Of a stretch of DNA of 40,313 nt, positions 781-40,313 are shown in pieces. The notes beneath the pieces are model-generated. The model saw nothing but the letters and a program-made list of their open reading frames with translations. It searched no databases and was not told the DNA's origin. Numbering within the stretch: position 1 is the stretch's first letter; each line of letters opens with the position of its first letter. Source of the DNA: Escherichia phage Mt1B1_P3; sequence record MT496969.1. One strand, given 5' to 3'. The position numbers and the translations under genes are program-made.

Positions 781-803
781 CTTCCCTATAGTGATAGTTA
801 AGT
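781..803 (-). promoter_or_regulatory. Phage RNAP promoter (phiOR-like), TSS about 786
   Basis: Minus strand ACTTAACTATCACTATAGGGAAG; matches the 10-copy consensus; lies between gene 19 and gene 19.5 as phiOR does in T7. Confidence 0.6.
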
Positions 804-3777: not shown

Positions 3778-6700
3778 TTACTTCTGTTCAAGAGCAGAAA
3801 GTCTGGCTTCGATTCTTTCCAGTTTTCTTCTCTGATAAGCGGCTTCAGCAAAGAAAATTCCGTCAGGCCGAACACCCCACTCCTCACCCTCTTCATGGAT
3901 AACCACCTCAGTGAATACAGGCTCTTCCGTAGTAGTGACATTACCCTCCTCGTCAGTGTGTTCAATGATTTCATTGTGCGAAAATACCGTATCGGTCATC
4001 CGTGGATACTTGTCATAGCACAGAACGGCATAACGACAATTCGTACTGTTTTCATCCATCAGACCGTGTGCAATGAATACATCACGAATTTGCTGAGCAA
4101 TAACCCCGAAGTGAATACGAGCATCATTGCCTTTCAGTTGAACAGCATCTAACCATTGATACATGATGTAGTGAACGTCACCCCAGGCATCTAGGAAAGC
4201 ATCATCAAAAACTACCGGCTCTGTTTTCTTCTCCCCATTAGAAGTAACAATAGGGTTGCTTCCGAGATATGCAGTTGTGAAACGGTTACTTGGTCCACCA
4301 AGCGCAATGACGTTATCGTTATAAGGCTTAACGTCAGCAGTCTGGAACAGATGCTCATCACCATTGTAAACTATTCGCCTTGAGTCTGTGTTATTTGCAC
4401 CATAAAGCGTAATCTGTGCGCCAGTCGTTGAACTGGTGCCTTCACCTCCGCAAAATATGGTGCGCTGCCCTGCCGGGTTATCAGTCGGTATAGACTTCCC
4501 GATAAACCCATATTCACCTTCCATTAAAACTTCAGAGCGAATGTTACTACTGGTGCTGGCTCTAAGGGTCACATGACCTAAACCCAAATCCCCTGTAAAT
4601 TCCATTGGTGCAGGAACAGTGCGAATCCCATTCGTATCAAAAAACACGGGAACAGCTCTGTTAGGTACAGCACCATACCTGAAATCACGGGAAACATGAT
4701 TGCTTGGGCCAATCTTCATTTTGTAGCAATACAAATCTGAGGGATGACCATCCGCTTTGAATGGGTCCTTCGCTGAGTTATCTCCATAGGTCCATGGGTT
4801 AAAATGGTCCTCTCCACCAAACATGTAGTAGATGTAATTATCCTTCACAACTACCGAACCAACACCTACACCTGAGTTAACTATTCCGCCCTGATAAATC
4901 TGGTCAGTGATGTTAACCCATTCAATATCATCTGCATTCCAATTGTTTACATTCAATCGTGCATAGAAGGTGCGAGGATAAGATGCCTTGTAACGATCAT
5001 CTGGTGCACCTGCTTCCCATTCATTTTCTGCACGTTCTGAACCAAACATAATAAGGTCATCCCCTACTTTAGCAAAAGGTAATGTAGTATGATGAACATT
5101 ATGTGGAAATCTCAGTGACTCCCAAGTCTGACCTATGTCTCTACTACGATGCAAAGAGCTACCTAGCCTATCCCCACGAGTGCCACGAGTGATAAGGTAT
5201 AATACACCGTCATAGTACTTTATGCACGGCTCTGACGCATCTGGTTCATACTCAGATGGTATCTGACGGCGAACATAACTAGATGGGCTATTGAAAGCGT
5301 CAGGGAAGTAGAAAAGCCCAACTTCGCGTGGAGCTACATCGCCTTGATGATAACCCATAACAAAGCCATTGTTATCAATAGTAGCAAAGCTATGCACCTC
5401 TGTGACACGAGGGATTAGACCAAGGTCTGTCTTACGCCATGGAGACTTATGGAAAGACGTACCCATGTGCCAATTCTTTCCAGCGTTATTCAAATCTGAA
5501 GTCTGCTGGTTGGGTGTAAGAACCGTGAAGTTGTCCTTATCTATTACGGTTGCAACAGTCATATCACCGGATACACCTGTTACCGCAGAATTAGAGAAGT
5601 TAACAAAATCACCCACGAATAGTCCGTGGTCTGGTACATGTATTGTTGCATATTGCTGATTTGCAGCTTTAGTGATACCACCAGTAAGATGCAGGCTACG
5701 AGACATGGGGCGATCCCATAATGCACAATTGGTTAATGCGTTCTTGGCTAAAGTACGTGTTTCAATCATGGCAAACAGACGGTTGCGACATACACCCATA
5801 CTCATACAGTGATAGTTCACTGTAGGGTAATCTGGATGCAGATCAGTTAGCCACTCTGGAGTAGACCATGTTTGACCATCATCACCAGACTTAACCCATG
5901 ATACATGCAGACGACTAACACCATGACGATCGCTACCCATGTAAGGTGCATATATCACATTATCATATACGAACGCTTTATCCTGAGGCCACGCATTGTA
6001 ATAAGGGGTGTCCGTTATTTTGAACAACTCACCCTGAACAAATTCCTCAGAGGCATAATAAAGAGGTTGTCCGGGAATGCGCTCATAAACGAAACGAGTG
6101 TTGATGAAGCGACTAATGTCAGGTAGGGATGTGACCTTATATGTCTTCCCATTGCCATTAATCTTTTGTCCAACCGGTATGTCGTTTAATGCGCTCGTTA
6201 ACGCTGCTGTATCATCAGTGACGCCATCACCTTTAGCACCCCAACCACGAACATCTTTTTCATCAAGCCAGCGTGCTCTATGTAATTCAGGGTAGAGTAT
6301 TGCCCCTTCAGGATTTGAAATCTGACTTCTTAAAGCAGCATCACCAACACTAACCCACGCACCTAATCCAATCCCACCGGAAGTTTCAGGAGTTGAACCA
6401 GCAGGAACGTTCTTTGGAAGCGTACCATCCCAGCGGTAATAATCACCATCCTCTTCCCATAGCAGGACCTCGCTCCATGTTGTAACGTTGTAGCCTTTCT
6501 CGAAGGAGCGACGGGTAATATAGCCAAGTCTACCAGCTTCCCTGATACTCTCAGCGATTCGTCGTGCTTCGTCCTCGCTATCCTTAGCGTTGCCAGCAGA
6601 GCTACTAGCAGCATCGGCATATTCCTTCGCTAAGTCAACCGTTTGGTCTCGACCTTCTTCTGCAATATGGATAGCCTGAAGCTCTGAATTAGTCAGGTCA

Positions 6701-6972
6701 CTAGCTGTCAACACTGAGCCATTCCTGAAGTCTACCACTAAGTCAGTTCCAGTCTGACGGTGAATACGAACGATGTCGAAACCTGATTGGTCAACCAACA
6801 TCTCAATCATCGTTGGATTAAGGAATCGGTAATCTCGACCAACTTCCAGTACACGGTTTAGGGTAGGGTTAGAGCTATTCACCAGCGTAACAACAATAAA
6901 CGTTCTGGCTAGGTAGTCGAACTCAATCCTGTACTGAGTGTTTCCTGAAGGGAATTGTGTAATCGTGGACAT
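3778..6972 (-). CDS. 17: Tailspike endosialidase (endo-N-acetylneuraminidase) with T7 gp17-like N-terminal adaptor and C-terminal intramolecular chaperone domain
   Basis: 1064 aa. N-terminus (FDYLARTFIVVTLV...DYRF...LVDFRNGSVLTASDL...IHIAEEGRD) aligns to T7 tail fiber N-domain; two Asp-box motifs SGDDGQTW and SRDIGQTW (sialidase beta-propeller); C-terminal GNDARIHFGVIAQQIRDV...AVLCYDKY resembles autocleaving chaperone domain of K1F endoNF. AGGAGG-CATA-ATG start. Confidence 0.93.
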   Translation of the reverse strand: MSTITQFPSGNTQYRIEFDYLARTFIVVTLVNSSNPTLNRVLEVGRDYRFLNPTMIEMLVDQSGFDIVRIHRQTGTDLVVDFRNGSVLTASDLTNSELQAIHIAEEGRDQTVDLAKEYADAASSSAGNAKDSEDEARRIAESIREAGRLGYITRRSFEKGYNVTTWSEVLLWEEDGDYYRWDGTLPKNVPAGSTPETSGGIGLGAWVSVGDAALRSQISNPEGAILYPELHRARWLDEKDVRGWGAKGDGVTDDTAALTSALNDIPVGQKINGNGKTYKVTSLPDISRFINTRFVYERIPGQPLYYASEEFVQGELFKITDTPYYNAWPQDKAFVYDNVIYAPYMGSDRHGVSRLHVSWVKSGDDGQTWSTPEWLTDLHPDYPTVNYHCMSMGVCRNRLFAMIETRTLAKNALTNCALWDRPMSRSLHLTGGITKAANQQYATIHVPDHGLFVGDFVNFSNSAVTGVSGDMTVATVIDKDNFTVLTPNQQTSDLNNAGKNWHMGTSFHKSPWRKTDLGLIPRVTEVHSFATIDNNGFVMGYHQGDVAPREVGLFYFPDAFNSPSSYVRRQIPSEYEPDASEPCIKYYDGVLYLITRGTRGDRLGSSLHRSRDIGQTWESLRFPHNVHHTTLPFAKVGDDLIMFGSERAENEWEAGAPDDRYKASYPRTFYARLNVNNWNADDIEWVNITDQIYQGGIVNSGVGVGSVVVKDNYIYYMFGGEDHFNPWTYGDNSAKDPFKADGHPSDLYCYKMKIGPSNHVSRDFRYGAVPNRAVPVFFDTNGIRTVPAPMEFTGDLGLGHVTLRASTSSNIRSEVLMEGEYGFIGKSIPTDNPAGQRTIFCGGEGTSSTTGAQITLYGANNTDSRRIVYNGDEHLFQTADVKPYNDNVIALGGPSNRFTTAYLGSNPIVTSNGEKKTEPVVFDDAFLDAWGDVHYIMYQWLDAVQLKGNDARIHFGVIAQQIRDVFIAHGLMDENSTNCRYAVLCYDKYPRMTDTVFSHNEIIEHTDEEGNVTTTEEPVFTEVVIHEEGEEWGVRPDGIFFAEAAYQRRKLERIEARLSALEQK

Positions 6973-7018: not shown

Positions 7019-7041
7019 GTTTCCTATAGTGATAGTTTAGT
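7019..7041 (-). promoter_or_regulatory. Phage RNAP promoter phi17, TSS about 7024
   Basis: Minus strand ACTAAACTATCACTATAGGAAAC immediately upstream of the tailspike gene. Confidence 0.65.
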
Positions 7042-14294: not shown

Positions 14295-14317
14295 AGTCCC
14301 TATAGTGATAGTTAAGG
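14295..14317 (-). promoter_or_regulatory. Phage RNAP promoter phi13, TSS about 14300
   Basis: Minus strand CCTTAACTATCACTATAGGGACT; embedded between 12-bp perfect inverted repeats (14285-14296 / 14323-14334). Confidence 0.65.
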
Positions 14318-18937: not shown

Positions 18938-18960
18938 TCTCCCTATAGTGATAGTTTAGT
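18938..18960 (-). promoter_or_regulatory. Phage RNAP promoter phi10, TSS about 18943
   Basis: Minus strand ACTAAACTATCACTATAGGGAGA; initiating GGGAGA identical to T7 class III promoters; directly upstream of capsid gene. Confidence 0.7.
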
Positions 18961-19936: not shown

Positions 19937-19959
19937 TGTTCCTATAGTGATAGTTTAGG
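19937..19959 (-). promoter_or_regulatory. Phage RNAP promoter phi9, TSS about 19942
   Basis: Minus strand CCTAAACTATCACTATAGGAACA upstream of scaffold gene; overlaps the portal gene stop. Confidence 0.65.
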
Positions 19960-22717: not shown

Positions 22718-22778
22718 CTTGAATCTCCTCTTTAAGTTAAGACTAAAGTCTATCTTATAGTCATATCTTAGGTCCTAA

Positions 22779-22801
22779 AGTCCCTATAGTGATAGTTTAG
22801 T
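22779..22801 (-). promoter_or_regulatory. Phage RNAP promoter phi6.5, TSS about 22784
   Basis: Minus strand ACTAAACTATCACTATAGGGACT. Confidence 0.65.
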
Positions 22802-28648: not shown

Positions 28649-28671
28649 CATCCCTAAGGTGATAGTTTAGG
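28649..28671 (-). promoter_or_regulatory. Variant phage promoter upstream of gene 4, followed by 5' hairpin
   Basis: Minus strand CCTAAACTATCACCTTAGGGATG (two changes at -4/-3 vs consensus); transcript would begin with GGGACA-N8-UGUCCC hairpin (plus 28630-28649). Confidence 0.5.
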
Positions 28672-28906: not shown

Positions 28907-29365
28907 TTAACCACGGTCGGAAGTGACCAGTTCATTGGTAGACAGCCAGCGTTGCAAGTCAAAACTTGGACACGCCTTAGGTGCTACGTCATGGTGTGCT
29001 TTGATTTCTGCCTGAGGATACAGGACCTTCAGGTCAGCCAGCTTGTTGCGCAGGGAGTTCATCTGGGCTGGAGTGAAGTTAGCTTCAAACTGACCCTTAG
29101 CGTCAATTCCACCTACAAGGCAGACGCCTACTGACCGGGAGTTCCAATCCTTAACGTGTGACCCTACGACATTTACCGGGCGACCCTCTTCCACAGTACC
29201 ATCACGCTTGATGATAAAGTGGTAGCCTACATCCAGCCAGCCTTGCTGCTTGTGCCACATACGGATGGTCTCTACCCCGATGTCCATCTCTGGCTTGGTA
29301 GCCGAACAGTGCACGAAGATAGCGTCAGTCCGGGACCGTGGGTTGAACTGTACCTTACTTACCAT
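28907..29365 (-). CDS. 3.5: Lysozyme / N-acetylmuramoyl-L-alanine amidase gp3.5
   Basis: 152 aa; near-identical blocks to T7 lysozyme (DAIFVHCSATKP, WLDVGYHFIIKRDGTVE, VGVCLVGGID, KACPSFDL, NELVTSDRG). Confidence 0.96.
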   Translation of the reverse strand: MVSKVQFNPRSRTDAIFVHCSATKPEMDIGVETIRMWHKQQGWLDVGYHFIIKRDGTVEEGRPVNVVGSHVKDWNSRSVGVCLVGGIDAKGQFEANFTPAQMNSLRNKLADLKVLYPQAEIKAHHDVAPKACPSFDLQRWLSTNELVTSDRG

Positions 29366-31014: not shown

Positions 31015-31037
31015 CTGTCCTACAGTGATAGTTTAGG
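31015..31037 (-). promoter_or_regulatory. Phage RNAP promoter phi2.5, TSS about 31020
   Basis: Minus strand ACCTAAACTATCACTGTAGGACAG (one change, -3 G). Confidence 0.6.
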
Positions 31038-32213: not shown

Positions 32214-32236
32214 TTGTCCTATAGTGATAGCTTAGG
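32214..32236 (-). promoter_or_regulatory. Phage RNAP promoter phi1.6, TSS about 32219
   Basis: Minus strand CCTAAGCTATCACTATAGGACAA. Confidence 0.6.
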
Positions 32237-33881: not shown

Positions 33882-33921
33882 TCATGAAGGCCACGACTTT
33901 GAGTCATGACCTTGAGTCTAA
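33882..33921 (-). promoter_or_regulatory. Putative RNase III processing hairpin (R1.1-like)
   Basis: Third copy of ATGAAGGCCAC-N11-ATGACCTTGAGTCTA element, in the leader of the phi1.1 transcript. Confidence 0.45.
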
Positions 33922-33941
33922 TCCTATAGTGATAGTTTAGG
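33919..33941 (-). promoter_or_regulatory. Phage RNAP promoter phi1.1, TSS about 33924
   Basis: Minus strand CCCTAAACTATCACTATAGGATTA. Confidence 0.65.
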
Positions 33942-34490: not shown

Positions 34491-37172
34491 TTACGCGAAT
34501 GCAAAGTCTGAAGACAAGATGTCTTCGATATTCAGTTTACCTTTCTTCGGAAGCTCAGGCAACTTGTCGCGCTGGCTCTCGTGAAGCTGGTATTCAAACT
34601 GCTCGTAGAAGTCAAGCAGCACATCGTTATCGCGGTAGGTCTCGACCATCGTCTCACGGACGCCACGGAACAGATACTCAGCGTCAGCCGGGATGGTCCC
34701 GAAGCTATCGTGAATCACTGCGAAGGACATCACGCCATACTTGCGGTGCGTGTGGACTACAGTCTTGCGTAGGTGGCTACCATCTTGTGAGTGGACGAAG
34801 TTCGGGCTAATGCCTGACTCCTGCTTGTGCTTGTCCAGCTCTTTCTTCGTGCCTTTGTTGACCGTAGGCTGAAGGTTGAATGACCCTAAGAACATCAGAT
34901 TCAGACGAGTGGTATCCTTCTTGCGGTATTCCTGCCAGACCGGGAAACCATCAGGTGTTACCCAGTGTACCGGAAGGCAAGGCTTCAGTATTTCTCCAGT
35001 CTTCTTGTCCTTCACTTCAGCAGCCAGCAGCTTGGCAGCACCCTGAAGCCACTTCATCGCGTCAACCGCAGCAACTACGGTCACGCTCACAGCTTCCCAA
35101 ATCATCTTAGCCATGAAGCGGGACGCTTGGCTTGGTTCGGTGAACATAGCGCCAGACCCTGAGTCAATCGCCGGCATCACGATGTCCTCATAAACTTGGT
35201 CTGCGAAGCCGTACTCTTTCGACCCATAGGCCAGAGTCATTACTGAACGCTTAGTGACCTTGCGTGACATGCCGTAAGTCAGCCACTGCCGGGCCAGCTC
35301 TCGTGTCCCCAGCTTGAGGCGTTCGGTAATCTCACCAGTTTTCTTGTCCTCGTGAGTTACCATCTCGTTGTCTGTGCCGTTAACCAGCAGGACTTTAAGC
35401 TCTTCCTCAATGCGGTCGGACACGATTCGGTAGATGTCTTGGACCTTACCGGAAGGCGTTAGGTTTACTGCATGTCCACCTATGTGATCACGAAGCATCG
35501 CGCTAAAGTGCTGAATCCCTGAGCATGACCCATCGAACGCTATCGGTAATGAGCAGGAGTAAGACAATCCGTGGTGCATTACACCAGCATACTCGAAGCA
35601 GAACGCAAGGAAGCAGAACGGAGAGTCTAACTTGCCCCACCACTCAATGCTATCCATCGGTGCCTTAGCAGCAGCCATAATGTTGTCGTGGTTGTCTTCC
35701 ACCCACTTGATGCGCTCCTCGAAGGTGACTTTATCAACACCCGCGCAGTTTGCACCATGGACCTTCAGCCATTTGAAACCGTCAGCACCAATAGGCTTAC
35801 CGACTGCCAGAGTAAGGAGACCTTTCTGCATGTCGTTACCCTGAGGGTTGAACATCGGAACAGCGTAGACGCGCCCACGCCAGTCCATGTTGTACGGGAA
35901 CCAGATGGCCTTGAACTGAGAGAACTTGTTCGCTTGGTTAACGATAAAGCTCAGTGACAATCTTCGCGACTGTCGGGCCTTCTCGCGGCGATAGATACCA
36001 GCAGCAGCCTTCTTCCATGCCTTGAGTTCCTCCTCAGTCTCACCCGCATAGTCTTCAGGCTTCAGTGGCTCCATCTGAGGGATGTCATCAATAGGCGTGT
36101 TGTTCAACTTCTCGACCATGTTCACCACGTCCAGTACCTTCTTGTTCACTTTCCAAGGTGTATTCTGGATGATATTCACAGCGTCATAGACTTCAGGCAT
36201 GTATACGTCTTCATAACGTGCCACCGCTGATTTAGACCCTAAGCGAATCAGGGGTAGCGGTCTGCGACCTTTGGCCCAGTACCCACCACCTACGACACCA
36301 GTCCACGGCTTAGGTGGAACGACGCAAGGCTGGTAGACTGGAGCTATACCCGCAAGGCTGAATCCTCGTTGTGCCATCTTCTTGACCCAGAAGTCTGACA
36401 GGTGGACCATCTCTACGTCAGCCGCTGCATTGCCAGCACCGTACCGCTTAAGCTCGACCAGTTGTGTTGACTGGATGACAATCTCAAGCATCTTGATGCC
36501 AACGTGGACAGCCTCTGTAGGACTCCAAGTTCCCCACGCATCTTCCAGTTGGCCTTGCTCCAGCATGGATGTCTCGACCGCTTGCATGTAGGCTTTCTTG
36601 TAGGACGCCCCGGCCCGCTTATTCAGGTTATCAGCTATCGCCTTCTTGAAGTGCTCTTTCTCTTTGTCACGGATGCGACCGAAGCGGATTTCGTCCTCAA
36701 GTGTGCGACCTATCGCGGAGGCCATCGGTGTAATCGGTATCCCTTCAGGCTTTACCAGCTTGGAGAGTATGACCTTCAGTATGATGACCGCAGCAGACTC
36801 GCAAGGGATACGCAGAGAGCGGTCCTTGACGGCCTTCTCTTCGGTGCTTAACATGGTGAACGCTACGCTAGGACGAGAGGTTGAAAGCTTCCCGTCTGGA
36901 CCTTCATACCACTCCCTGACGGCTTGCGCAATCTTAGGAACCAGAGTCTGCATCAAAGGCTTGGCGACCTGATTGTCTGCCAGTTCCCCGCGCTCAGTCT
37001 GTCGCTCAAGGTTTTTGATGAAACGTCGCTCGCCTTCAGTGTATGCCTCATGCTCAAGCTGAAGCTGCTTGACTGCAAGGTCCTTCCCGTAGTGGTCAGC
37101 CAGCAGGTTAAACGGCTCAATGGCGTTCGACACATCAGAGAAGTCGTGTTTATCAATAGAGATGACGCTCAT
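34491..37172 (-). CDS. 1: Single-subunit DNA-dependent RNA polymerase (T7 RNAP family)
   Basis: 893 aa; collinear with T7/T3 RNAP (KNDFSD...PFNxLADHYG, WFPYNMDWRGRVYAVPMFNPQGNDMxKGLLTLA, FDGSCSGIQHFSAMLRD, VMTLAYGS, IHDSFGT, C-terminal SDFAFA). Confidence 0.98.
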   Translation of the reverse strand: MSVISIDKHDFSDVSNAIEPFNLLADHYGKDLAVKQLQLEHEAYTEGERRFIKNLERQTERGELADNQVAKPLMQTLVPKIAQAVREWYEGPDGKLSTSRPSVAFTMLSTEEKAVKDRSLRIPCESAAVIILKVILSKLVKPEGIPITPMASAIGRTLEDEIRFGRIRDKEKEHFKKAIADNLNKRAGASYKKAYMQAVETSMLEQGQLEDAWGTWSPTEAVHVGIKMLEIVIQSTQLVELKRYGAGNAAADVEMVHLSDFWVKKMAQRGFSLAGIAPVYQPCVVPPKPWTGVVGGGYWAKGRRPLPLIRLGSKSAVARYEDVYMPEVYDAVNIIQNTPWKVNKKVLDVVNMVEKLNNTPIDDIPQMEPLKPEDYAGETEEELKAWKKAAAGIYRREKARQSRRLSLSFIVNQANKFSQFKAIWFPYNMDWRGRVYAVPMFNPQGNDMQKGLLTLAVGKPIGADGFKWLKVHGANCAGVDKVTFEERIKWVEDNHDNIMAAAKAPMDSIEWWGKLDSPFCFLAFCFEYAGVMHHGLSYSCSLPIAFDGSCSGIQHFSAMLRDHIGGHAVNLTPSGKVQDIYRIVSDRIEEELKVLLVNGTDNEMVTHEDKKTGEITERLKLGTRELARQWLTYGMSRKVTKRSVMTLAYGSKEYGFADQVYEDIVMPAIDSGSGAMFTEPSQASRFMAKMIWEAVSVTVVAAVDAMKWLQGAAKLLAAEVKDKKTGEILKPCLPVHWVTPDGFPVWQEYRKKDTTRLNLMFLGSFNLQPTVNKGTKKELDKHKQESGISPNFVHSQDGSHLRKTVVHTHRKYGVMSFAVIHDSFGTIPADAEYLFRGVRETMVETYRDNDVLLDFYEQFEYQLHESQRDKLPELPKKGKLNIEDILSSDFAFA

Positions 37173-37240
37173 ACTTAAAGTCCTTGTTATTAGTCTTTCA
37201 CTTAGAGTCTCTTTGGTCTTTCACTTGTAGTCTTAGACCT

Positions 37241-37263
37241 TTAGTCCTAAAGTGATAGTTAAG
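37241..37263 (-). promoter_or_regulatory. Degenerate phage-promoter-like sequence upstream of the RNAP gene
   Basis: Minus strand GACTTAACTATCACTTTAGGACTAA: upstream half matches consensus, but -3 and +3 deviate; functional status unknown. Confidence 0.3.
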
Positions 37264-37269
37264 TCATAA

Positions 37270-37530
37270 TCACTTGCATATCAGTTGGTTAGCGTGGAGA
37301 TGGCTGAAGTCACCATTGGTCGTGTGCTTGATGGTTGACCGTTGGTCCATCGCCTTCCAGCCTGAGACTAAAAGTTTACCATCGTCAGTGATCGGTCGTC
37401 CACCATACGCCAGACACATCAGTTCGTACTCATGGCCCTCAGCCTTCATGCGGCGATGTAAGAACTCGTCACGCTGTATTTGCTCTATACGGCTACGGAT
37501 AGATGGCTTGTTAATGTATACTGTTTTCAT
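37270..37530 (-). CDS. Early hypothetical protein (86 aa)
   Basis: ATG overlapping stop of upstream ORF (TAATG); no recognised motif. Confidence 0.55.
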   Translation of the reverse strand: MKTVYINKPSIRSRIEQIQRDEFLHRRMKAEGHEYELMCLAYGGRPITDDGKLLVSGWKAMDQRSTIKHTTNGDFSHLHANQLICK

Positions 37531-37727
37531 TACAGTTTGCTCCCAATAGTTGCTATATCCCAGACGTTCGCTAAGTTGCGCATGAATCGTCCGTTAGGTT
37601 GACGTACAGTCCAGCGGCCCAGACGTACATAGTTTAATTTGTATACTCTATGCGCTTTATTGATGTCTCTCACCAGCACGTAGGCGATAAGTCCATAGCC
37701 TATGGCTATCAATAGTGCAAGACTCAT
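37530..37727 (-). CDS. Early hypothetical small membrane protein (65 aa)
   Basis: N-terminal hydrophobic helix MSLALLIAIGYGLIAYVLV followed by basic region; weak RBS. Confidence 0.5.
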   Translation of the reverse strand: MSLALLIAIGYGLIAYVLVRDINKAHRVYKLNYVRLGRWTVRQPNGRFMRNLANVWDIATIGSKL

Positions 37728-37835
37728 AGTGATTTCCGTTTAATACAGTCGTATATCCCCCAAGCTATCAGAAAGATGACCGGAGATAAGCATACCAAAT
37801 GTCCAACACTCATAGTTAACCTCTATCAATTTAAG

Positions 37836-37888
37836 TGGTAATCTTTGAGGCCACCTATCAGTCGATGACCTCTCGTCTATCACTCAGC
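37836..37888 (-). promoter_or_regulatory. Putative RNase III processing hairpin (early region)
   Basis: AAGTGGTAATC...GAGGCCACC...GATGACCTCTCGTCTATCACTCAG; same family as elements at 38270, 39066, 39386. Confidence 0.45.
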
Positions 37889-37902
37889 TAGGCCTTACAC
37901 GG

Positions 37903-38250
37903 TTACACTTCCACCGATACAGTGGTCATCTTGCTTACAGTCAGCCCACCAGCAAGCTCAACCGCATAGCGTATCGCCTCCTCTTTGGACTTGAAGTCCT
38001 TTCCTGCAAGGTGGTAAATATCACCTGTTATTACCTTAGAAGGCCGGCGACTCACCGCAATGGCGTTTTCCATGGCAAGCTCACCACGGATATACTGAGT
38101 AAACCAGCGCTTCACCGAACTCGTTCCCACCCCGAACTTTTGGGCGGTTTCAGTCACCCTATCCATAACTCCCTCAGGCAGAGAGGTGTAGTAGTTAACA
38201 ACGTTGAGTTTAAATGCTACCGAGAATACATTGCGAGTTTTAGCAGTCAT
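37903..38250 (-). CDS. Early protein with transposase-type helix-turn-helix N-terminus (115 aa)
   Basis: FSVAFKLNVVNYY...TETAQKFGVGTSSVKRWFTQY resembles the IS3/IS911 OrfA HTH signature (FSxEFKLxVV...G.S...V..W..Y); GAAGGA RBS. Confidence 0.65.
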   Translation of the reverse strand: MTAKTRNVFSVAFKLNVVNYYTSLPEGVMDRVTETAQKFGVGTSSVKRWFTQYIRGELAMENAIAVSRRPSKVITGDIYHLAGKDFKSKEEAIRYAVELAGGLTVSKMTTVSVEV

Positions 38251-38269
38251 TATTCTTTCCTTCTGTAGT

Positions 38270-38328
38270 TATCAAGTGGTAATCACTCAGGCCACCATGT
38301 AGATGACCTGTAGTTTAACACTCAGTAC
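38270..38328 (-). promoter_or_regulatory. Putative RNase III processing hairpin (early region)
   Basis: Minus RNA can pair CAGGUCAU with GUGGCCUG (8 bp incl. G-U) around a 7-nt loop, flanked by imperfect lower stem. Confidence 0.45.
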
Positions 38329-38352
38329 CCACCTGTCAGCGTTATGGTCAGG

Positions 38353-38520
38353 CTATGGTAAATATTTCTTGTCCTCAGCGTGTAGGCTGTCGTGTATGCG
38401 CTTGCGTCTCCTGTAGACCACTTTCAAGAGGCGCATAGACTCCTCGTGGTTTAATCTCCCGGTCTTGACCATAAGCCGGGCGTTGGTGACGTGGTGCTGG
38501 CAGAGACCATAAGTTACCAT
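38353..38520 (-). CDS. Small early ORF (55 aa), hypothetical
   Basis: Hand translation MVTYGLCQHHVTNARLMVKTGRLNHEESMRLLKVVYRRRKRIHDSLHAEDKKYLP; ATG overlaps Ocr stop (TGATG), GAGGAGG 10 nt upstream. Confidence 0.4.
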   Translation of the reverse strand: MVTYGLCQHHVTNARLMVKTGRLNHEESMRLLKVVYRRRKRIHDSLHAEDKKYLP

Positions 38521-39050
38521 CACTCGCAGTCCTCCTCAGCAGCCTCAGGATCGAACACTACGTTATCGTTGATGTCTTCGACCTGCATGTGAAAACCTTC
38601 CTCATAGAGTTCTTTTGCACATGCAATAGCCTCGCAAAGTGATACAGCTGCCTCAATTATCTCGCCTGTTCTAGTGTCAACTACCCAATATTCAGCCTTT
38701 TCGTCCTCCTCTTCAGCCTTTTCGTCTTCCTCTTCAGCCTCAAACCAGACCACCTCAGAGCTATTAGACACATCGTTATACAGTGCCTCATAGATGCGAG
38801 CTTGTAGTATACGCGTTACGTCCTTGGTCTCAGGCATCAGCCCAGAGTCTTCGAACTCATTGTCAATACCATCAGCAGCCATCACCGTGTAAATCTCGTG
38901 GTAATAATGCGGAACATTACCGTCTACGACCTCATGCAGCGCATCACTGTAGTCATCGCCTTCAGCTATTTCGTCGCACTGAATACGCTCATTGAACAGC
39001 TCAACGGTTGCAGCCAGCAGCTCATAGTATGCGTTAGCGTTACGTTCCAT
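38520..39050 (-). CDS. ocr: Ocr-like DNA-mimic anti-restriction protein (gp0.3) with C-terminal extension
   Basis: Core [47 protein letters not shown] matches T7 Ocr ([46 protein letters not shown]); 176 aa vs 117 aa in T7, with duplicated EEDEKAE and about 55 extra C-terminal residues. Confidence 0.9.
   Translation of the reverse strand: [176 protein letters not shown]
38690..38740. repeat. 21-bp tandem duplication inside ocr (encodes EEDEKAE x2)
   Basis: cagccttttcgtcctcctctt / cagccttttcgtcttcctctt adjacent copies on plus strand. Confidence 0.8.
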
Positions 39051-39065
39051 AGTTATATCCTCTCA

Positions 39066-39124
39066 GTTGTTAGTGACTATCAGTCAGGCCGCTATAAGTC
39101 TAACGACCTGTAGTTAATCACTCT
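39066..39124 (-). promoter_or_regulatory. Putative RNase III processing hairpin (R0.5-like)
   Basis: GTTAGTGACTATCAGTCAGGCCGC-loop-ACGACCTGTAGTTAATCACT; imperfect long hairpin between first early ORF and ocr. Confidence 0.45.
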
Positions 39125-39378
39125 CAGTTAGCGAAATAAGGAGCTGAGACGCCCGCTGTAGGACTCACGGTTATCTGCGAATCTATCAGGTAGGTCTCGT
39201 TGTCTATGCGCACAGTATCTATGCTGTAGTTGCTGAACGGCTTGCTTGAGACCTTGCGCACTACCACACGGTGACGCGCTCCTGTCATCTCTTTAAGCTG
39301 AATCCACGCATAACCTTTAGTGTTCACGAATACTTCATTGTGATTAGTGATTGTGCTTAAGTGTTTCATAGTGTTCAT
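39124..39378 (-). CDS. First early ORF (84 aa), hypothetical
   Basis: Open frame fills the interval between two RNase III-like elements upstream of ocr; no obvious Shine-Dalgarno; no recognised motif. Confidence 0.45.
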   Translation of the reverse strand: MNTMKHLSTITNHNEVFVNTKGYAWIQLKEMTGARHRVVVRKVSSKPFSNYSIDTVRIDNETYLIDSQITVSPTAGVSAPYFAN

Positions 39379-39385
39379 CCGTTAA

Positions 39386-39449
39386 GTTAGTGACTATCAG
39401 TCAGGGCCTTCAGATGTAGACTCAAAGGCCCTGTAGTTAGTCGCTATCT
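39386..39449 (-). promoter_or_regulatory. Putative RNase III processing hairpin (R0.3-like) in early leader
   Basis: Perfect 8-bp inverted repeat AGGGCCTT (39403-39410) / AAGGCCCT (39425-39432) with 14-nt loop, flanked by imperfectly complementary arms. Confidence 0.5.
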
Positions 39450-39678
39450 GCGTACATTAAGAGTTTATCCAGATTGTTAAAGAGCATTGTTGGCTGTCCA
39501 ACTCGGGGTATTGCGTAGTTCCCAACGTTCTCTGTTACCGCGCTATAGGTAGTAACTTAGTATCCGACAATCAGACCTTCTTCACTCGGTGAAGCCCGGC
39601 CCCTCAATTTACTCTTAGTGAGGCGGTTAGAGTGTACCTGCTACCAATTCCGTGGTGGCGTCTTACTGCTTTAGATTC

Positions 39679-39708
39679 ATAATACTTTAATTATATACTT
39701 CTTGTCAA
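39679..39708 (-). promoter_or_regulatory. Candidate host sigma70 early promoter
   Basis: Minus strand TTGACA (plus 39703-39708) then 18 nt then TATTAT (plus 39679-39684); correct orientation for early genes. Only one of the expected multiple early promoters could be picked out by eye. Confidence 0.35.
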
Positions 39709-39999
39709 CTACTTTCTGTCGGTTGCCTGTTGTTCGTATGTCTTACAGGCTGACTACTTAACCGGACCGGACCGGCGTCTTCACTATCCGGTTGTTGCCG
39801 TGTCGTGTTGACGGAAGCTATTAGGCCATATCCTTGACCTATAGTCAATAGGTAATTTGAAATAATACTGATTAAGCTATCGTCGGCCTCATGGTGTAAG
39901 AGGATATAGTCTTTGACTAACATGTCTTGGACCTTAAGTCTATAGCTCTGTGTCTAGTAACTGTAGATCTATGACTGTAGGTGTTGGTGTCTTATGGTT

Positions 40000-40076
40000 G
40001 AGACTGTAGGTTAGTGAGACTGTAGGTTAGTGAGACTGTAGGTTAGTGAGACTGTAGGTTAGTGAGACTGTAGGTG
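40000..40076. repeat. Tandem 16-bp repeats (gagactgtaggttagt x4.8) adjacent to right DTR
   Basis: Four exact copies plus a partial one, preceded by a degenerate copy at 39971-39983. Confidence 0.9.
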
Positions 40077-40111
40077 TAGGACGTAATGTTATACTATAAC
40101 ACTATACAGAT

Positions 40112-40313
40112 AGAGACTCAAAGAAGACCTATAGCCTCTACCTATCGTCCTTCCATAAGCCATAGCCTAGACCTATCGTTGACCTGAAGTCCTGACCATC
40201 GGTCCAACCTTATGACAGACTGGCTGTGACTGCAAGGAGTAGTAACGGGTAGGGCCTTTGGTCTGGACTTAAAGAGGGCCTATGGGGAGACTTGAGGTTC
40301 TTGAACTGTGAGA
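40112..40313. repeat. Right direct terminal repeat (DTR)
   Basis: Identical to bases 1-202. Confidence 0.85.

Follow-up and report, generated by a model that had tools for sequence, protein, structure and literature searches.

Does the RNA polymerase of this phage transcribe its own gene? The question is raised by a short promoter-like element that an initial annotation placed just upstream of the RNA polymerase (RNAP) gene, gene 1, with the remark that T7 does not drive its polymerase gene in this way. The window, i.e., the whole 40,313-nt stretch of DNA that was analysed, is a complete linear T7-type genome in reverse-complemented orientation. It is the genome of the coliphage MT1B1P3, which belongs to Kayfunavirus, the genus of K1F-like phages within the T7 group (Studiervirinae). 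The stretch corresponds to record OZ035815.1 (MT1B1P3), relative to which it is circularly permuted, and the larger of the two alignment blocks contains 0 mismatches and 1 gap. All long open reading frames (ORFs) in the ORF list lie on the minus strand. The gene 1 product is 99.1% identical to the K1F RNAP and 62.6% identical to T7 RNAP (~62% to the T7 and T3 enzymes), and its specificity loop RLNLMFLGSFNLQ is the same in MT1B1P3, K1F and Dev2. Gene 1 follows a homologue of gene 0.38, from whose stop codon its ATG is separated by a gap of 97 nt. The features that frame the locus are as follows.

1-202 and 40112-40313: exact 202-bp direct terminal repeats.
34491-37172, minus strand: gene 1, single-subunit RNA polymerase of 893 aa, from the ORF list (ATG at 37172-37170).
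37270-37530, minus strand: gene 0.38 homologue, from the ORF list (named gp0.38 in K1F, NC_007636; stop TGA at 37272-37270).
39679-39708, minus strand: best sigma-70-like early promoter, TTGACA-18-TATTAT, matching 11 of 12 consensus positions; putative first source of gene 1 transcripts, and also annotated as a promoter in phage ASO2B.

The element was judged against the other phage promoters of the same genome. A search of the whole genome returned ten further sites that share the core ACTATCACTATAGG, each of them on the minus strand and ahead of a gene, with the consensus (A/C)CT(A/T)AACTATCACTATAGG(G/A)A. For all promoter numbering, +1 was set at the first G past the TATA box. The ten sites, from gene 1 towards the right genome end, are listed here.

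33919-33941, minus strand: phage promoter downstream of gene 1, +1 at 33924 (37.0 bits).
32214-32236, minus strand: phage promoter, +1 at 32219.
31015-31037, minus strand: phage promoter upstream of gene 2.5, with -3 G (box CACTGTAGG), +1 at 31020.
28649-28671, minus strand: phage promoter before the primase/helicase gene, box CACCTTAGG with C at -4 and T at -3, +1 at 28654.
22779-22801, minus strand: phage promoter, +1 at 22784.
19937-19959, minus strand: phage promoter, +1 at 19942.
18938-18960, minus strand: phage promoter upstream of the capsid gene, +1 at 18943.
14295-14317, minus strand: phage promoter, +1 at 14300.
7019-7041, minus strand: phage promoter, +1 at 7024.
781-803, minus strand: phage promoter near the right genome end, phiOR-like, +1 at 786.

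Two weaker resemblances to this family were seen elsewhere on the minus strand. At 5799-5821, within the ORF of a 1064-aa tail protein (3778-6972), the sequence AGTGAACTATCACTGTATGAGTA has an intact recognition half and TG instead of GG at the start site; at 14.0 bits it falls below the maximum for shuffled genomes and is probably not a promoter. Around 22750-22775, a possible remnant of a tandem duplication follows the promoter at 22784 at a distance of 29 nt; it is a degenerate box, GGACCTAAGATATGACTATAAGATAG, that scores 15.3 bits.

The site before gene 1 is the eleventh and leftmost member of the MT1B1P3 family. Its 25-nt string GACTTAACTATCACTTTAGGACTAA occurs once in the genome, at 37241-37265 on the minus strand. 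The initial annotation had thus located a real site, but its coordinates, 37241-37263, stop 2 nt short of the true end at 37265 and leave the minus strand unstated. The promoter and its landmarks are defined as follows.

37242-37264, minus strand: phage RNAP promoter before gene 1, -17 to +6, ACTTAACTATCACTTTAGGACTA, from the leave-out position weight matrix (PWM) and orthology.
37247, minus strand: predicted transcription start, +1 G of GGAC, placed by register with the T7-type CACTATA|GG box.
37250, minus strand: -3 T, the sole mismatch to the conserved positions (consensus A).
37242, minus strand: +6 A (C in K1F and most relatives).

With a matrix built without the candidate, the gene-1 promoter scores 31.4 bits. 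The ten training sites score 33.1-40.8, which makes it the lowest of the eleven, whereas the best non-member in the genome reaches 15.3 bits and the maximum over 20 shuffled genomes is 20.2; a chance match was rejected on these values. The site is intergenic, lies on the same strand as all genes and upstream of one of them, and keeps its position in 25 relatives. Its -17 base sits 5 nt past the gene 0.38 stop, the gene 1 ATG lies 75 nt downstream, and scanning found no terminator-like signal between 37247 and gene 1 or within gene 1 as far as 34491. The description of a phage-promoter-like element just upstream of the RNAP gene therefore stands, as does the claim that the recognition half is kept: every invariant position from -16 to +2 agrees save -3, where 37250 carries T and eight of the ten other sites carry A. 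The melting box (-4 to -1) reads TTTA followed by GG, against TATA and GG in the consensus, and remains A/T-only. Both +1 and +2 are G in 11/11 genome sites and in all 25 unique sequences compared from the gene-1 locus. The second difference proposed earlier, at +3, did not hold up: the A at this position is shared by five of the ten other promoters. The downstream base that truly differs is +6 (A at 37242, C in K1F). To call the element degenerate overstates a single mismatch to conserved positions.

A phage promoter is not the only signal that might occupy such a gap. Scanning 37173-37300 for -35/-10 hexamers at 16-18 nt spacing gave no sigma-70-like match and, with the terminator scan likewise empty, a host promoter or terminator between gene 0.38 and gene 1 was rejected. 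The conserved box could also belong to an RNase III hairpin in the host-made early transcript and resemble a promoter only incidentally. T7 and T3 have such a site, R1, at the equivalent position, and in MT1B1P3 the -3 T and +6 A together form a short palindrome, CTTTAGGACTAAAG. Yet the 75-nt leader folds no more stably than shuffled sequences (z = -0.04), nor does the intergenic region (z = 0.12); the alignment fold of ten relatives reaches -4.7 kcal/mol with 0 compensatory pairs; and an Rfam search gave no match. The palindrome is found in no relative, and the box shifts with RNAP specificity, which is unexpected of an RNA hairpin. A stable irregular hairpin of ~50 nt with conserved structure was accordingly rejected as a candidate; this explanation is extremely improbable and close to refuted. 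Folding brought up nothing else than a weak pairing, without covariation, between +3 to +13 and the Shine-Dalgarno region.

The palindrome itself lies across the start site (37242-37255, minus strand). Its two contributing bases were also considered as a compensatory pair, which was rejected since +6 A occurs alone in phages 01KA and 1RS and no more than 5 pairs, rich in A/U, would form the hairpin.

The site can be traced in related phages. In K1F, the exact consensus stands at the orthologous place, ...GACTTAACTATCACTATAGGACTCAAGG..., with the gene 1 ATG ~75 nt further on, and CR44b and 14 IMG/VR relatives likewise have an exact-consensus promoter at this place. The eleven promoter sites of K1F occupy positions orthologous to the eleven of MT1B1P3. 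Among 25 unique sequences of the locus, columns -13 to -11, -8 to -4 and -1 to +4 of the promoter are invariant, whereas 60-63% of columns vary in the flanks (the end of gene 0.38 and the leader). The -3 base is A in 23 of these 25 sequences, G in one and T in one, the latter being MT1B1P3. Judging from these comparisons and from the Citrobacter phage CR8 (Caroctavirus), the gene-1 promoter is no oddity of MT1B1P3; an orthologue is kept throughout Kayfunavirus and in CR8. The records PV615262.1 (L050) and MT350292.1 bear the names Acinetobacter phage vB_Aba_01KA and Enterococcus phage EFA-1, respectively. They hold Kayfunavirus genomes that are almost the same as those of E. coli phages, and these host labels look doubtful.

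The strongest argument for function comes from phages whose polymerase has changed its promoter specificity. Three relatives (L026, L029 and L027), in which the N-terminal region of the RNAP is 75-77% identical to that of MT1B1P3, carry AAACCCTCACT(A/G)TAGG upstream of gene 1, and the stretches retrieved from each of them show the same box at 5-9 positions that are orthologous to promoters. Their specificity loop, RLDLMFLGTFRLQ, has D and R at the equivalents of T7 N748 and R756, as in T3, and the T3 promoter is likewise of the ACCCTCAC type, matching these relatives with a D..R loop. In T7, the residues at these positions contact -11/-10 and -9 (PMC5937735, summarising earlier work). CR8, with an RNAP N-terminus 65% identical to that of MT1B1P3, uses a box of its own, AAGGAAGGTACACTATAGG (AGGTACAC type), at eleven annotated positions, with an exact copy in the gap between gene 0.38 and gene 1. 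At recognition positions -12 to -8, phages with an N..N loop thus have ACTAT, those with a D..R loop have ACCCT and CR8 has AGGTA, and in each of the three specificities the gene-1 site follows the genome-wide box. As the site is rewritten whenever the polymerase changes specificity, it is presumably used by that polymerase; this co-variation points to a selected, functional promoter. It is also, together with the dating of the -3 change described below, what the present analysis contributes.

Of the 175 GenBank sequences that match a 54-nt probe, two have T at -3, namely MT1B1P3 itself and ASO2B. ASO2B, a Canadian wastewater isolate, is 99.5% identical to MT1B1P3 over 1.5 kb; its record was deposited separately and contains the identical 54-nt stretch, and a sequencing error was rejected as the source of the T on that account. 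In 01KA and 1RS, the phages next in similarity, +6 A is combined with -3 A, so the +6 A predates the change at -3, and the A>T is by this distribution one recent point substitution on a +6 A background. Changes in the initiation box are not confined to this lineage. In the SFPH2/Dev2/IMM-002 clade (L019-L024, SFPH2 (L034) at 1001 and Dev2 (L035) at 2385) the gene-1 promoter is CACTAAAGG, with A at -2, while 11 other promoters of SFPH2 and Dev2 have T at -2, most of them as CACTATAGG; L027 has G at -3. Read across the group, these amount to three independent initiation-box changes at the gene-1 promoter, namely -3 T, -2 A and -3 G.

One interpretation is that the substitution crippled an ancestral promoter, leaving gene 1 to host transcription only, as in T7, and the element as a decaying relic. 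The low score would fit, as would the position of -3 inside the box that must melt for initiation and the uniqueness of the T among the 25 sequences of the locus, confined as it is to two near-identical genomes. But the change lies outside the recognition half, where all positions are intact, and it keeps the box free of G and C. Conserved promoters of the genus, moreover, naturally carry -3 T or -3 G: CACTTTAGG, the same box as in the -3 T allele, occurs at the gene 2.5 promoter of SFPH2 and Dev2; CACCTTAGG before the primase/helicase gene is kept in all four genomes (MT1B1P3, K1F, SFPH2 and Dev2); and CACTGTAGG stands upstream of gene 2.5 in both MT1B1P3 and K1F.

Data from a barcoded T7 promoter library also weigh against a loss of function. 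Of the 244 members of its high-activity group, at least eight have CACTTTAGG and one has CACCTTAGG, the wild-type base at -3 is retained at a rate of 81.6%, one of the lowest values in the core (S1 table), and a CACTAAAGG box (-2 A) is transcribed at about the wild-type level (PMC5937735); these values were obtained with T7 RNAP in vitro, mostly with other substitutions combined, and concern that enzyme, not one of the K1F type. TAATACGACTCACTTTAGG, the single mutant that corresponds exactly, did not turn up in the portion of the library supplement searched. By analogy with these variants, the -3 T allele probably retains promoter activity and is perhaps somewhat weaker than the consensus. Its persistence in two separately deposited records indicates that it is viable, although the two genomes are so similar that selection may not yet have had time to act on the allele. 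A decaying relic is in our estimate unlikely.

The sequence that would be transcribed first from this promoter has features of its own.

37173-37247, minus strand: 75-nt leader of the predicted gene 1 mRNA, A-rich, with Shine-Dalgarno AAGGA at 37181-37185.
37216-37226, minus strand: direct repeat AAGTGAAAGAC (11 nt), copy 1, at +22 to +32, conserved in close relatives.
37193-37203, minus strand: direct repeat AAGTGAAAGAC (11 nt), copy 2, at +45 to +55, conserved in relatives.

Six RGACY pentamers fall within the leader, with GAC at +2, +16, +30, +39, +53 and +66, where 0.53 would be expected per 75 nt; no other window of the genome is as dense. The cluster and the direct repeat are partly conserved in diverged relatives, with AAGAC units persisting in L026, L027 and CR8, and the Shine-Dalgarno region (+61 to +75) is highly conserved among the 25 unique sequences.

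These properties bear on a further possibility, that the promoter works but was selected for another role, either as a substitute for phiOL, letting the phage polymerase take over DNA internalisation early, or in replication priming together with its A/T-rich leader, in the manner of the T7 and T3 origins, which pair a promoter with A/T-rich DNA. Conservation shows that the site matters, not which role it plays, and both of these roles would select the same box. A promoter search found no phiOL-type site in the K1F-like genomes MT1B1P3 and K1F, and the gene-1 promoter is therefore their leftmost phage promoter. The primary origin of T3 lies immediately downstream of a phage promoter, and in MT1B1P3 the phage promoter is followed by an unstructured, A/T-rich leader with an 11-nt direct repeat and the densest RGACY cluster. 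Only one canonical T7-type primase site (TGGTC), however, is read from the sequence, which bears also on the RGACY repeats as possible primase sites, and the position of the T7/T3 origin is occupied by the promoter at 33924, downstream of gene 1. Any transcript from the gene-1 promoter, moreover, necessarily includes gene 1. A role in DNA entry or priming as the selected function seems to us improbable; it and a feedback role are not mutually exclusive.

Taken together, we consider it probable that the element is a genuine phage RNAP promoter between gene 0.38 and gene 1, under selection and feeding back on polymerase synthesis, with the -3 T most likely tolerated. In the course of infection, the host polymerase would first transcribe gene 1 from sigma-70 promoters ~2.5 kb upstream. 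Newly made phage polymerase would then bind -17 to -5 through its specificity loop, melt the TTTA box and start at the G at 37247, and the resulting mRNA would comprise the unstructured 75-nt leader and gene 1 and continue into the middle genes. We infer that such a natural ‘autogene’ would provide positive feedback, sustaining polymerase synthesis past the shut-off of host transcription. T7 lysozyme inhibits T7 polymerase and, by analogy, the lysozyme homologue of MT1B1P3 would damp the loop by inhibiting the polymerase.

28907-29365: ORF of the phage lysozyme homologue (T7-lysozyme type).

The balance between host shut-off and polymerase feedback may also be affected by the lack of a T7 gene 0.7 kinase homologue: judged by ORF sizes and the annotations of relatives only, there is none among the early ORFs of MT1B1P3 (37530-40100) or in the K1F annotation. 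SFPH2, Dev2 and CR8, in contrast to MT1B1P3 and K1F, encode a gene 0.7 kinase homologue.

A more elaborate version of this scheme would regard the promoter as a tuned gain control, in which initiation-box substitutions are adaptive for polymerase dosage and the RGACY leader is a platform for a regulator. It builds on the three independent initiation-box changes, which would then be no product of neutral drift, and on the observation that the recognition half of the gene-1 promoter changes only together with the polymerase. We regard it as speculative and quite unlikely to be correct.

A gene-1 promoter of this kind would correct the textbook picture, which is based on T7, in that phages of the K1F/CR8 branch have their polymerase placed so as to transcribe the gene that encodes it. 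This arrangement persisted while promoter specificity switched at least twice and is thus probably important for phage timing. It is relevant to the use of K1F-type polymerase/promoter pairs as orthogonal parts, to the engineering of therapeutic Kayfunavirus phages and to genome annotation. The -3 T allele is a minor natural variant, which could serve to test the importance of the melting box for a K1F-type enzyme.

The promoter is already known as a prediction in relatives and is ordinary for K1F-like phages. It is entered as a ‘predicted promoter’ in the GenBank records of CR44b and CR8, and a 2026 paper on phage Sparklingdew describes CTWAACTATCACTATAGG repeats as promoters, one of them at the 3' end of the gene just before that of the RNAP (PMC13298934). 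No features are annotated in the MT1B1P3 record, and the ASO2B record, in the first 5.9 kb examined, annotates only sigma-70-like promoters and terminators and not the gene-1 phage promoter. In the searchable literature, which does not extend to the original K1F genome paper, we found no mapping of transcription starts for any Kayfunavirus and no experimental test of the predicted gene-1 promoters of K1F, CR44b, Sparklingdew and CR8. All four resemble MT1B1P3 in having the promoter past gene 0.38, ~75-80 nt before the gene 1 ATG and in the same orientation. The 23-bp box of K1F, CR44b and Sparklingdew differs from that of MT1B1P3 only at -3 (A vs. T) and +6 (C vs. A), whereas CR8 has a different recognition sequence.

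In its architecture the gene-1 site resembles the class II (middle) promoters of T7, which likewise span 23 bp, with a recognition half from -17 to -5 and a melting/initiation half from -4 to +6, and in which natural deviations also fall in the initiation half; several natural T7 class II promoters carry a CACTAAAGG box. The recognition sequences of the two phages differ (ACTATCAC in MT1B1P3 vs. CGACTCAC in T7), matching their different specificity loops. The early contrast drawn with T7 is right in that T7, unlike MT1B1P3, has no phage promoter immediately upstream of gene 1, but it passes over phiOL, which both the T7 and the T3 record show ahead of the complete early region and which leaves T7 with some potential for transcribing its own polymerase gene. 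Past phiOL, the first phage promoters of both are found after gene 1. The same records place E. coli promoter C before gene 1, and the T3 record also places RNase III site R1 there. Promoter C and R1 thus fill the slot in which MT1B1P3 has the phage promoter and in which no sigma-70-like match and no stable hairpin were found in MT1B1P3.

Comparable arrangements have been published for other T7-like phages. In the Pseudomonas phage LUZ100, the phi1 promoter lies directly upstream of the RNAP gene, its start site has been mapped and positive feedback was proposed (PMC10134795); in the Vibrio phage phiA318, the similarly placed phi-A8 promoter is a prediction that was read as autoregulation (PMC4099482). 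Both phages belong to genera distant from MT1B1P3 and their promoter sequences are unrelated to its own. For LUZ100, gating by a MarR-like repressor in a temperate context was proposed, and no such regulator is evident in MT1B1P3. The K1F RNAP/promoter pair is itself in experimental use as an orthogonal expression system (PMC12218169). A functional parallel is the engineered T7 autogene, in which T7 gene 1 is placed under a T7 promoter (concept used in PMC6395690 and PMC1500874) and the polymerase, as proposed for MT1B1P3, transcribes its own gene from its own promoter. The T7 autogene is artificial, whereas the arrangement in MT1B1P3 is natural and conserved, and is embedded in a lytic programme with a lysozyme homologue that, as in T7, would be expected to damp it.
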